Positions 20,648 through 24,407 of a stretch of 64,000 nt of DNA are shown one piece after another. Within the stretch, counting starts at the first letter, position 1, and the number at the start of each line of letters is the position of its first letter. The stretch is from Naegleria gruberi (taxonomy: Eukaryota). The stretch is from the NCBI GenBank assembly GCA_000004985.1, contig GG738927.1; one strand, written 5' to 3'. The notes under the pieces are model-generated. The model saw only the letters and a program-made list of their open reading frames with translations, searched no databases and was not told the DNA's origin. The position numbers and the translations under genes are program-made.

Positions 20648-23600
20648 TTATTTCTTCTTCTTGGTAGAGTAACTTGTTTCTTTTGGTGTTGGTAGCTTTT
20701 TCTTTGGTTTCTCTTCCTCAGATTCCGAACTTTCTATCTTCTTTTTAGTTTCATATTTCATATCATCATCGGATTCTTCAGAGTCATACTTCTTTGCTTT
20801 CTTTGAAACAGGTGATTTGAGTGGTTTCTCTATCTTCTTTGGTGATGGACACCCATCAGAAGAGTCGTCATCTGAACTTTCTTTCTTCTTTTCACTCTTT
20901 TTAGTTTTCCATGTTTCTGTTTCTTCCTCTTCGTCATCCAATACTTCATGAATGTTTGTGAGCTCGTCTTTGGATCTCTTGACATAAATGTGAGATTCAC
21001 GAGTTCTCAATACTAATTTTCTAGACCGATACCAAGATTTGTTCATTTTTGATTCTAAGCTCATTGTTTGAAAGTTAATTGTGTTGCCATTAGAGAGTTC
21101 GTATAGAGAATTTGTAGCCTTTTTTGAGCTTGACTTTTGAGCTTTGAATAACCTGTATGCTTGTTCCACTAGTTTTGCTTCTTCTTCACCAAGTACATTT
21201 CTACCAGAGCCTATCCCAAGTATCCATTGATACTTGGTAAACTTTTTCTTTCCTACTGACTTGTTCTCTATTTTTTCATCAACATAGGCATCTCTAAAAA
21301 AGTTTCTATTATGTGGATGGAATGAGCCAACAACATATTGACGGGTTGGCTCATATGTTATAAATTCCAAATGTGGAGGGAGGTCACTCTTTGGTTCCTT
21401 TGGTTGAATAATTCCATTAATATCGTTAAGTGAATACTCAAAGAATAGTTTCATCTTTTTCTCCTCAACTACGTATGTTGTTCTTGCCTTAATGTGATTA
21501 AAAAGCTGACTAGCAGATATAAATTCAGAATTCCAACTGTACCTAGGAAGACGAATTTGTGTATAGTCATGATATTTTGACTTGGAAACCGTCTTTTCGG
21601 CAGATTCAACATCATTTCCTGCTCCAATTGATTTCAGTCCTCCTCTAAAATTGGCATGCTTATAGGCATGTCTGATGAGGAGAATTTTGGCAAGACCTGT
21701 GACATTATGAAGTTTGGCTCTTGGTTGAGGCTGTCTAAAGTATCTTCTATTATGTTTGTAGAAATGATCCCCTATCAAAATATCATTTTGAACTCTTTTT
21801 TCTTCATAGCCAGCTACTCCAACTCTAAAGCCACGGAGAGCATACTTGGTTAACCTTAATTCGTCTTATGAAATTATTAGAATTTAATTTTAAAGTACTC
21901 ACAAGTTGTAGATTGTCTATCAACGTCTACAATATTGCATCTTGTCTTTATGGCTTGAATGGCTCTTGGTAATGCGTAAACTTGAGAGCCATCAAAACCA
22001 ACACAACAACAATTCACATCGAATCCAATTAAGACTTCAGCCTTTTGTTGACCAAGAGATTTGTAAATTTTAAAAATTACGTAAACTTACTGGAGATTTG
22101 TAAATTCTCAAAATTACTTGCACTGTCCTTACTGAGCTGATAAACTTGAATGTAATAGCATTTTCAGTTCTGATCAACAAAATATCATCATAATTTGTGC
22201 CTTCTTCGGTGGACTTTGGAGAGGAGTATTTTTTGGATTTTTTAGTGAGCTTGTTGAACTTGTTGCTATCATTTGCATTTTCTGGTTTTGCAAAATGTGG
22301 AATGTTTTTGATATTCTTTTTGAATAATTCAAAAAGGTAAAAAATCTTCTTTTCGGCTTCCTTTTCATCCAAACCATAAATGAATAAATCTATATCACTG
22401 TTTTTCCAATAGGATTTTCTAAAATAGTTGAAAAGTTCTTCATCCAAATCATCTTGTTCGTATTTTTTGAATGAGCTTGCTTTTTTGGCTCGAACAGGTT
22501 TATCGTCCTCAGAACTTGTTGCTGAAAAATATCCATCTGCAACAGACCCATTATCATTATCAGAATTAGAACCATCATCCTCATCCCAGAGCACTTTTTT
22601 CTTTGCTTGTTGCATTACTCCACCTTGGAAAGGATCAACCTTTTGAAATCTACTGTAACGGTTTTCTTGTAGCAAGTCTTTTCTATCCAATTTAGCTTTG
22701 AGCATGCATGCCAAAATTCCACCACCTAATTTTTAAATATTATTGAAAATTGAATAATTAAAAATATTAAAGAAAGACATACCTGCTGCGAATACATTAC
22801 TCCAATCCATATCTTTAAATAGACCACAAGTTAGAGCGTTAAATTGAGTGAAGAATTCTTCTCTATCAGAAACAATTTCTGGGATTGGTGGCAATTTGAG
22901 TCTTGAATATTCATTGATAAGTTCAGAACATTCAACAGGGTTTTCAAAATCAAAAAGCAAAGGTAGGGTACTTGGAGGATCGCATGGTTTGAGTAATTCT
23001 CTGGTAGAATGTTCATTACCAAAAACACTAACCAAATGAATGTAAGGATCTGAAAGAATCTGATTTTCTCTATCTGAAACATATAAATTTCTCAAAAAGT
23101 CTTCCTCTTTTTTGATTTTTAAATTATTAGATCCAATATCTTCGATTGGATAACGAAGAGGATCTAAAAAGTCTAAAAGTCCTTGGAGTTTGAATTCTTT
23201 GGCCTCTTTGTAAACCAGTTTTCTCTGAGACATTTCTCTTGGGACTGAAGTGAAGGTTGCACTCTCCAAATATTCGTACAATACAGAAAAGACTTCACTA
23301 TCTCTGTCAAGGAATATTTCACGGTTGGTACTTGCTTGAATCAATTGAGGGAAAATACTTTCTGGATGGACAAGTAACTTTTCAATACCAATGCAAAATT
23401 TCACACCTCTTACATTGAAAACAATTGGTTCCTTTTTCAAAAAGGCCTCTCTTTTTCTGAGTTCTTCTCTTTCCTGTTCAAGATCAACCTCAGCCTTTTT
23501 CAAAAAGTCTTCCATGACAGTCTTTTCCTTGAGTGTAAGCTTTGAAAACATATCCAACCATTTTTCATCACTTTCGTTTTGATTAGAATGGAGAGTGTTA

Positions 23601-24407
23601 TGTTGAGAAACTCTGTATTCTTTGATTTCAGGTGTATCTTCCTTTTCTTCCATTCTTTGGTGTCTTTGATTGGAATTGTGTTGCTTGATCAATTCGGCAA
23701 CTCTTGCACTTAATTTACTTGTACCAAAGTAATCAGATTCTATCAGCAAAGCTTTTAACTTTTCAATGGTATCTTCAGTTATATTTTCCCACAAACCTAC
23801 ATATGTGGTGGATCCTGTGTGAATTAAATAAATGTCACTCGTCATCACAACTAAACATTCTTAACCTACCAGTTCTAATATGCTCCAAAATGATTGGAAA
23901 ATAATCTGGATTACTCTCACTCAACAAGATACAGCCATTCTCATCACGATCAACCTTAAAATCAGAATTCAACATGGTCTTGATCATATTCTCTCTTCTA
24001 TTAATGGTAGAAAGTGAGGTAACAAACATTTTCCCTCCGACCATCAATTTGACAATATTTTCACCTGATTGCAAGATTTCCTTCACCTTTTCACTATTCA
24101 GATGATCATCTTGTTGGTCATCCATCTTGTTGCCATTAAACTTTTCTAGAACTTCGATTTCCTTCATCTTTTGTTGATTTCTTCTCCTTTCTTCATCGAT
24201 TTTGTGGAGAGCATCAATTCGGACTGTTTCTAATTCTTCTCTCTCTTTGATGTATTGTGGATCATCTTTTGAAGAGGAAAATGATGATGGTTTTGGTGCA
24301 TAGGATGAAGATGACGAAGAGCTTGGTTCTTCTGCTTTGCGTTTCTTCTGATGTTCGAAGGCGGAGGATGAGCTTACTTTCCTTGCCGTTTGTTTGGTTC
24401 GGGCCAT
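20648..24407 (-). CDS. Giant multi-exon protein. From N- to C-terminus: histone-H3-tail-like N-terminus ([10 protein letters not shown]), BTB/T1 domain, coiled-coil, second BTB/T1 domain, conserved Cys-rich block (IGFDVNCCCVGFDGSQVYALPRA), and a K/E/S-rich tail
   Basis: Four track ORFs on the same strand are joined by frame-preserving introns. Intron 23815-23869 is 55 nt (GTAGGT..CAG). Intron 22736-22792 is 57 nt (GTATGT..TAG) and removes an in-frame TAA. Intron 22042-22090 is 49 nt (GTAAGT..AAG). Intron 21855-21892 is 38 nt (GTGAGT..AAG). ATG at 24407 with aaaaaaaaATGgcc. BTB/T1 blocks: IVKLMVGGKMFVTSLSTI...DRDENGCILLSESNPDYFPIILEHIRTG and IVFNVRGVKFCIGIEKLLVHPESIF...FLDRDSEVFSVLYEYLES. Confidence 0.6.

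Follow-up and report, generated by a model that had tools for sequence, protein, structure and literature searches.

An exact histone H3 N-terminal tail on a BTB-nucleotidyltransferase protein of Naegleria gruberi and its recurrence on distant PF26128 proteins

Mimicry of the histone H3 N-terminus by non-histone proteins is already known as a concept. The H3TMs, of which VRK1 is an example, bind PHD and Tudor readers as well as NuRD, and in vitro their K4 can be methylated (Chen et al. 2021, PMC8166343); H3-like N-termini are also known on PAF15 and Sgo1 (PMC7060239, PMC9253516). In the latter two proteins an H3-like free N-terminus docks on an H3-tail reader. The partner is the PHD finger of UHRF1 in the case of PAF15 and the BIR domain of Survivin in the case of Sgo1. 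Here we describe a gene of Naegleria gruberi located on the minus strand of a 64,000-nucleotide stretch of contig GG738927.1 (assembly GCA_000004985.1; the whole stretch is referred to below as the window), whose product begins with the first nine residues of H3 and continues into two BTB domains and a nucleotidyltransferase (NTase) domain assigned through its homologues to family PF26128. The same tail was found on PF26128 proteins in at least three distant lineages.

The N. gruberi protein resembles the H3TMs in that a non-histone N-terminus with R2 and K4 would imitate H3 after removal of the initiator methionine. By their three defining rules the H3TMs share only H3 positions 1-4, whereas nine residues are shared here and 6-18 or more in the relatives described below; two further differences are the protist host and the recurrence of the tail on a single enzyme family. 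For PAF15 and Sgo1 the resemblance to H3 extends over 3-5 residues; each serves one reader, and neither is a PF26128 enzyme. A further class comprises internal mimics, in which short H3-like peptides on non-histone proteins act as substrate, trap or decoy for chromatin enzymes and readers, among them the K27M-like peptide of EZHIP and influenza NS1. The automethylation motifs of G9a and SETDB1 (10.1101/2025.01.21.634156) and the ARKS motif of SARS-CoV-2 ORF8 (10.1101/2021.11.10.468057) belong to the same class. Its members are internal or C-terminal motifs of 4-6 residues near K9 or K27, whereas the copy described here occupies the extreme N-terminus and includes A1 to K4. An engineered H3-tail fusion has been reported as functional (PMC11875203), although a later preprint questions the contribution of the tail. 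No description of an exact long H3 tail on a cellular enzyme, or of such tails recurring in Discoba, Amoebozoa and Fungi on one NTase family, was found in the searchable literature, nor was a published account of the N. gruberi protein (XP_002669433.1), of PF26128/Gad2 in eukaryotes or of such H3-tail fusions; the protein sequence itself is public under a wrong name.

The codons directly after the start ATG encode ARTKQTARK, which reproduces H3 residues 1-9 exactly, as stated in the preliminary description of this DNA that was made from the sequence alone. That description had also expected the local H3 to start in the same way, and the H3 of N. gruberi (EFC36852) indeed shares its first ten residues, Met included, with this protein; the H3 N-terminus was taken from a supplementary table of Grau-Bové et al. 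(10.1101/2021.11.30.470311). The sequence leaves H3 after residue 10 and continues VSSSSAFEHQKKRK, the stretch following ARTKQTAR being KVSSSSAFEHQK. A histone-fold core was not found (no Histone Pfam match and no H3-core motifs in the window) and the protein is not a member of the H3 family. Based on amino-acid composition, the 9-mer would be expected by chance at a frequency of ~1e-11 per protein and ~1e-7 per proteome. Three of the nine tail codons (CGA, ACG, AGG) are rare elsewhere in the gene, and the tail codons as exact DNA gave 0 matches in the metagenome scans. The main ATG has an A at -3 and a G at +4, is preceded by an in-frame TGA 27 nt upstream and is followed by the next in-frame Met only at residue 81. 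The resulting start M-A-R-T-K agrees with the sequence rules for H3TMs, namely a small residue after Met, Arg at mature position 2 and Lys at position 4, and by the methionine aminopeptidase rule the Met would be removed.

Nine further PF26128 proteins, among 318 that were fetched, begin with or contain an H3 tail (Table 1), where the chance expectation for ARTKQT among 318 proteins is ~1e-5, and these tail-bearers are without BTB domains. Common to the tails are only A1-R2-T3-K4-Q5-T6 and R8, with position 9 varying between K, A, I and M and with single-position departures from H3 that include K14L, K14I, K4R and K9A/I/M. The four tailed amoebozoan genera come from separate major lineages. 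In the amoebozoan group the tail forms a conserved island followed by a linker unrelated in sequence and length, up to the family motif EPPAPMT, a pattern characteristic of a selected short linear motif. The tail and the family motif EEPAAPMT are encoded together by exon 1 in Balamuthia, the tail of P0193 lies within one uninterrupted open reading frame (ORF), tail and protein are on single transcripts in Rhizamoeba and Mastigella, and the N. gruberi tail shares an exon with the first BTB domain. The weakest case for the tail belonging to the gene is Pelomyxa, whose first exon has only 8 codons. A mis-joined H3 exon in these relatives was ruled out, as several tails differ singly from H3 and are contiguous with family-specific sequence.

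In a neighbour-joining tree, constructed without the insert-bearing Naegleria sequences, tailed proteins appeared at several places in the amoebozoan clade and once in the fungal clade beside tail-less relatives, with same-species tail-less paralogues next to the tailed proteins of Pelomyxa and Cladochytrium. The Naegleria BTB clade is separate from the tailed amoebozoan and fungal proteins, and no further H3 tails were present among 63 new relatives around the chytrid member. Either the tail has been gained at least three times or it is ancient and often lost, and in both cases it is tied to the NTase domain; more than one gain is probable.

In the preliminary description, orthologues without the nine-residue N-terminus were to mark it as a chance match. 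Homologues of this kind are what the genus Naegleria offers; as the same tail occurs on distant BTB-less NTase relatives, the conclusion of chance does not follow, and a chance match was ruled out by the composition statistics together with the recurrence in the PF26128 family. The same description had paired the H3 tail with a BTB, Cul3-adaptor-like scaffold. Because the tail recurs without BTB domains, the meaningful pairing is instead that of H3 tail and NTase. Only some T1-type BTB proteins bind Cul3.

As a rough control, 38 of 41 MARTKQT-encoding loci in IMG/VR were histone-fold H3 genes and only one encoded a non-histone protein, which indicates that such tails are rare outside histones. 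In a giant-virus metagenome contig of the same database (GVMAG-S-1101168-109; L014:3001-3435), H3 residues 1-22 open a 145-aa non-histone protein whose remainder is coiled-coil-like sequence with no histone fold. Directly upstream of the H3-tailed NTase gene of Pelomyxa schiedti (L007:855-2282) is a gene for a RING and DTC (Deltex C-terminal) protein, a domain type linked to ADP-ribose and ubiquitin signalling; the adjacency is possibly a coincidence.

Table 1. Features of the N. gruberi gene in window coordinates, and H3 tails of other PF26128 proteins
Feature	Window position	Strand	Remarks
Whole coding sequence	24407..20648	minus	5 exons, 3561 nt, 1186 aa
Exons	24407-23870, 23814-22783, 22725-22091, 22041-21903, 21864-20648	minus	stop included
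Introns 1-4	23869-23815, 22782-22726, 22090-22042, 21902-21865	minus	55/57/49/38 nt, all GT..AG
Upstream ATG	24435-24433	minus	overlaps in-frame TGA 24434-24432; opens out-of-frame 57-aa upstream ORF 24435..24262
ARTKQTARK codons, H3 residues 1-9	24404-24378	minus	directly after ATG 24407-24405
KKRK, residues 21-24	24336..24347	minus	likely nuclear localisation signal (NLS), within Ser-rich disordered linker, residues 11-50
Charged helical segment, residues 51-95	24123..24257	minus	putative coiled coil; R56, E60, L67, E83, E88 invariant
BTB_2 (T1/KCTD-type) domain 1, residues 117-215	23708..24059	minus	spans intron 1
BTB_2 domain 2, residues 309-395	23168..23428	minus	second PF02214 stretch; KCTD1/KCTD15 PDB matches at 309-397
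PF26128 ("Gad2") NTase domain, residues 396-830	21719..23167	minus	spans introns 2-4
AAGGGILAC motif	22706-22789	minus	partner of DxD
90-aa acidic/Ser-rich insert in NTase domain	22421-22693	minus	between GG and DxD motifs
SDIDLFIYG, residues 633-641	22373..22399	minus	DxD metal-binding motif
IGFDVNCCCVGFDGSQVYALPRAIQAIK	21946..22029	minus	conserved NTase core, "Cys-rich block" of the preliminary description; second Asp of GFD.D is Asn
C-terminal extension of NTase module, residues 831-985	21254..21718	minus	conserved, with invariant columns; helices and strands modelled in equivalent part
Divergent WWE-like domain, residues ~990-1075	20984..21241	minus	first Trp and Glu kept; second Trp replaced by Leu
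K/E/S/D-rich low-complexity tail, residues 1090-1186	20651..20941	minus	
P0118, Balamuthia mandrillaris			N-terminal tail, 10 residues identical to H3
P0144, Rhizamoeba saxonica			N-terminal tail, 18 residues identical to H3
P0160, Mastigella eilhardi			N-terminal tail, 8 residues identical; K9 to A
P0142, Pelomyxa schiedti			MARTKQTQRIEM; 6 residues identical and R8; K9 to I
P0193, P0245, P0246, metagenomes			13 residues identical, then APRKQLA; K14 to L in P0193
P0205, Cladochytrium tenue (chytrid)			tail with K4R and K14I
P0108, metagenome			internal copy, residues ~1040-1070; K9 to M

The locus is a real N. gruberi gene. Its spliced protein was identical, letter for letter in an exact-sequence look-up, to XP_002669433.1 of N. 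gruberi NEG-M (EFC36689.1, UniProt D2W2R0), and four further ORFs in the window correspond to N. gruberi proteins of the same 174-kb scaffold. The public name "ankyrin repeat domain-containing protein" is a misnomer, as no Ank-family Pfam match at E<=1 was found in the 1186-aa protein; evidently it was taken over from family members with ankyrin repeats of their own. When the protein was aligned to six homologues (N. lovaniensis, N. fowleri and Willaertia magna), each of the four exon junctions lay inside an invariant block (HIRTG/STTY, AAG/GGIL, YKSP/AEVL and QSTT/YELRL for introns 1-4, the slash marking the junction); intron 1 falls within the first BTB domain and its block is invariant across all homologues. 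An environmental contig from an independent metagenome (L005, ENA ERZ929261) encodes the same N-terminus and has few differences from the window in the 5' region, which rules out an assembly or sequencing artefact. The first ORF as a separate gene was likewise ruled out, since the first BTB domain crosses intron 1 and the model is the public one. The single gene, exon structure and coordinates proposed in the preliminary description were therefore upheld, as were its two T1-type BTB domains and its K/E-rich tail; its length of about 1150 aa was too short, and of its "frame-preserving" introns the number and sizes were right, but three of the four are not multiples of three and must be removed to keep the frame.

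The order of the parts is the H3(1-9) tail, KKRK, the coiled coil, two T1-type BTB domains, the PF26128 NTase, a divergent WWE and the K/E/S-rich tail. The homologue alignment places a K/R-rich KRKR-type block where KKRK sits in most homologues, and charged helical segments ahead of each BTB domain. The Pfam family PF02214 was matched with 45.1 bits against a cut-off of 21.4 in two stretches (residues 117-182 and ~309-395), and residues 115-185 matched BACURD3/KCTD BTB domains in a phmmer search of PDB (E 4.5e-6). The protein is thus similar to KCTD/BACURD proteins in having two BTB_2 domains above the Pfam threshold that match solved BTB structures and differs from them in that the tandem BTB domains are fused to an NTase. 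The extension C-terminal to the NTase contains the motifs TGLAKILL, HDY, LNDI and ITxEPxRQ..GSFHP..NFF.DAY. Beyond it, no Pfam match to WWE (PF02825) was obtained in the C-terminal region at E<=10, and this region is homologous to the Pfam-positive WWE domains of paralogues P0005/6/7 (hhalign probability 96%, E 2.5e-9), which identifies it as a divergent WWE.

Assignments to PF26128 were available precomputed for homologues P0001, P0002 and P0004-6, and the exon-3 ORF of L005, the near-identical contig, has a weak assignment; the N. gruberi protein itself gave a weak Pfam match to Polbeta at residues 626-658, on SDIDLFIYG. A profile from five Naegleria homologues retrieved 5413 representative proteins, 628 of them at E<=1e-30. 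The invariant positions of a 67-sequence alignment (A6) included the DxD pair (D162, D164), F232, D233, D235, R251 and E-x-R-L-x-K-Y, with AGG (G140/G141) nearly invariant, and the hGG, DxD and GFD.D..C..G[FY]DG motifs are present in the N. gruberi protein as AAGGG, SDIDLF and GFDVNCCCVGFDG. It keeps 15 of 16 invariant columns of A6. The exception is D235, replaced by Asn; the position is Asp in 151 of 163 family members and Asn only in this protein and its paralogue. The block described earlier as Cys-rich, IGFDVNCCCVGFDG...PRA..., is conserved as had been claimed and is in fact the most conserved part of the NTase domain, and not a separate Cys motif; a zinc-binding block was ruled out on the basis of the 67-sequence alignment, in which it forms the NTase core GFD..CC.GFDG.

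A compact Rhizamoeba homologue modelled from 67 sequences reached a predicted local distance difference test (pLDDT) score of 89.4 and a predicted template-modelling (pTM) score of 0.88, and the model has a Pol-beta-type NTase fold with an acidic triad; a model of P0001 from a 5-sequence alignment had a pLDDT of 40. As modelled, the fold appears similar to class II CCA-adding enzymes and poly(A) polymerases. Class II CCA-adding enzymes, bacterial poly(A) polymerase and TENT5 (PDB 3wfo, 3h37, 3aql, 6jyj) have 9-15% identity to the NTase model, which, unlike them, lacks detectable membership of their sequence families and has no tRNA-binding body or tail domains. The H3 tail of the modelled Rhizamoeba protein is disordered, with pLDDT below 50 for residues 1-26, and is not docked in the catalytic cleft; being disordered, it would be accessible.

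Gad2, after which the family is named, is an anti-Gabija protein of phages, and its discoverers predicted an NTase fold for it (10.1101/2023.05.01.538930); the link to the N. gruberi protein is through homologues assigned to PF26128. Gad2 is a phage protein of ~400 aa directed against bacterial defence, whereas the eukaryotic and giant-virus members carry BTB, ankyrin, F-box, PARP or WWE domains and Gabija is irrelevant there. Fusion partners in the family also include PARP catalytic, WWE, PNK-phosphatase and UDG domains, and by eye WGR- or BRCT-like N-termini are present on some members, which suggests a DNA-damage or ADP-ribose context for these fusions. Giant viruses of amoebae commonly encode PF26128-type NTases (Fadolivirus, Pithovirus, Bodo saltans virus, klosneuviruses, Pandoravirus and Mimivirus), often as fusions with BTB, ankyrin, F-box or VWFA domains (IMG/VR contigs L008-L011; BFVD matches). 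The BTB-NTase architecture occurs in Fadolivirus, Faunusvirus, Hyperionvirus, Pandoravirus and giant-virus metagenome contigs, one of which (L008, from a metagenome-assembled genome) has a BTB/T1-like N-terminus and the architecture of the Naegleria proteins. None of the giant-virus PF26128-type proteins inspected had an H3 tail. A role of the family in host-virus conflict is conceivable.

We give about even chances to the interpretation that the N-terminal nonapeptide is a functional copy of the H3 tail, serving as a docking or modification peptide for H3-tail-binding proteins; judging from its sequence, the product is probably nuclear, oligomeric and enzyme-like. With Ala at position 2 the initiator Met would be removed to leave the free amino terminus A1-R2-T3-K4-Q5-T6-A7-R8-K9 as in H3, and factors that read the extreme N-terminus of H3 could then bind the exposed tail and perhaps also methylate it or modify it in other ways at K4 or K9. 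Such readers include PHD fingers, WD40 proteins such as WDR5 and RbAp46/48, and BIR domains. Because only residues 1-6 and R8 are common to the tails, recognition would be of the free extreme N-terminus rather than of K9. The tail would thereby be a built-in docking or address peptide coupling the NTase to H3-tail-binding chromatin machinery or, alternatively, the location, activity or stability of the enzyme would be made dependent on that machinery. The BTB and coiled-coil parts, if they oligomerise, would display several tails per particle and so provide avidity. A role as substrate or decoy for H3K4/K9 writers and readers appears plausible.

Several observations weigh against a functional tail. 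The homologues found in N. lovaniensis, N. fowleri and Willaertia all lack it, their N-termini consisting of Met, a short variable stretch and mostly then a K/R-rich KRKR-type block, and the nearest relative, the N. gruberi paralogue P0158 (XP_002680222.1, 64% identity), has the annotated start MLQQAKKRK. As far as Naegleria is concerned, the tail is known from this gene of N. gruberi strains only and may have arisen recently. The position of H3 S10 is Val, and the Asn at the near-invariant core Asp may mean that the enzyme is altered or inactive. L005 has one A fewer in the run that precedes the main ATG (A7 vs A8; L005:886-915), which brings the ATG 28 nt upstream into frame in this related strain; were that ATG used, the motif would be internal. 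The 318 PF26128 proteins are a sample gathered by family homology and not a proteome-wide census.

A wider proposal, to be regarded as tentative and as less likely than not, is that the PF26128 NTases of amoeboid protists, chytrids and giant viruses are unrecognised chromatin- or histone-tail-directed enzymes. Their tails, acquired repeatedly (at least three times, some exact and some with K9M, K9I or K14L/I), would act as regulatory pseudosubstrates or as traps or decoys for H3-modifying enzymes, possibly in host-virus conflict. Changes of K to M or I are of the type that traps SET-domain methyltransferases, and by analogy some variant tails (K9M, K9I) could be natural inhibitors.

It is unlikely, in our view, that H3 tails are what the NTase, or ADP-ribosylation machinery associated with it, naturally acts on and that the attached copy is a built-in substrate or pseudosubstrate, serving as an automodification acceptor or occupying the active site as an autoinhibitor, comparable to the automethylated motifs of G9a and SETDB1. 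The tail does travel with the NTase and not with the BTB domains, K9M or K9I-like substitutions of the enzyme-trap type occur in some tails, the family is fused to PARP, WWE, BRCT-like, WGR-like, PNK-phosphatase and UDG partners with a divergent WWE kept here, and SETDB1 automethylation at histone-mimic motifs has been reported (10.1101/2025.01.21.634156). However, in the AlphaFold2 model described above the tail lies disordered outside the catalytic cleft, and the closest structural relatives act on RNA 3' ends and not on proteins. The main ADP-ribose acceptor of H3 in animals is S10, which is the residue replaced by Val in N. gruberi.

Somewhat more doubtful is a young neutral accident, in which an H3 gene supplied a new 5' end to this paralogue by recombination or gene conversion in the N. 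gruberi lineage, leaving a tail that is functionless so far. The tail-less paralogue and the other tail-less Naegleria and Willaertia homologues are as this account would have them, as are the three rare tail codons. In Naegleria the family is also fast-evolving as well as large, multi-copy and non-syntenic (N. lovaniensis has at least six paralogues), and no positional orthologue was found at four N. lovaniensis loci (L001 and L002 by tblastx; L003 and L004 by Pfam families of neighbouring genes only). An accident of this kind does not account for recurrence of the tail on the same enzyme family in Amoebozoa, a chytrid and uncultured organisms, where the single differences of several tails from canonical H3 (K14L, K14I, K4R, K9A/I/M) also exclude mis-joined exons.

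It is improbable that the tail serves only as a signal for nuclear import or chaperoning of the histone type, read by H3-specific karyopherins. The H3 N-terminal tail is an NLS for Kap123/importin-4-type receptors and the protein appears nuclear from its KKRK block, but both it and most tail-less homologues already have a classical KRKR-type signal. The known import determinants of H3 lie around K14 and K23, whereas only 6-9 residues are conserved across the tails and K14 is replaced in two of the longer ones. Very improbable is a motif that is not N-terminal, whether through the upstream ATG, in frame in the related environmental strain (MISSFNKKKMARTKQ), or through an unannotated 5' exon joined at a possible acceptor "tag" between the two ATGs, since the upstream ATG of NEG-M is in another reading frame and overlaps a stop codon of the main frame, the main ATG has the -3 and +4 context noted above and is used in the public model, and homologues begin within a few residues of the equivalent position.

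Known histone mimicry mostly concerns 3-6-residue motifs in animal and viral proteins, compared to 6-18 or more residues on a cellular enzyme family here, and the tailed lineages are separated by a very large span of eukaryotic evolution. If functional, the tail would mark an uncharacterised NTase family, including a phage anti-defence protein and many giant-virus proteins, as chromatin-linked and would open a natural route to the factors that the first six H3 residues attract away from the nucleosome. Peptides and antibodies already available for H3 would allow the idea to be tested directly. Antibodies against the H3 N-terminus or against H3K4/K9 marks may cross-react with this N. gruberi protein of ~135 kDa (calculated).

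The protein P0154 of N. fowleri (XP_044558122.1), a different paralogue, starts MARKKSMVVSSS and keeps A1, R2 and K4, which corresponds to the minimal H3TM rule, and its N. lovaniensis counterpart P0002 starts MGKKPLL. A further BTB_2 and PF26128 paralogue of 1313 aa was identified in N. lovaniensis (PYSW02000029.1; L004:1-1316) ~6.7 kb upstream of P0004 on the same strand, and P0001 is on the same contig, so that the family is partly clustered in this species. The annotated N. lovaniensis protein P0003 (C9374_002782; L003) is without the central NTase part from GG to the second GFDG; either the copy is degenerate or its gene model was wrongly predicted.

Elsewhere in the window, the neighbouring gene at 18674-20560 (minus strand) encodes an ERCC1/Rad10 homologue (Rad10 and HhH) with a Ser/Asn/Pro-rich N-terminal extension of ~250 aa. 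The region 30009-32363 (plus strand) encodes a 784-aa protein (XP_002669406.1) of unusual architecture, in which weak CHASE4 and HAMP matches of a bacterial-type sensor are combined with a eukaryotic RGS domain. A run of N from 55863 to ~57100 is an assembly gap and is responsible for an apparent 14.5% GC and for spurious long ORFs there. A tandem array at 62650-62803 consists of 26 copies of TTGGGT, a telomere-like hexamer, with 94% matches.

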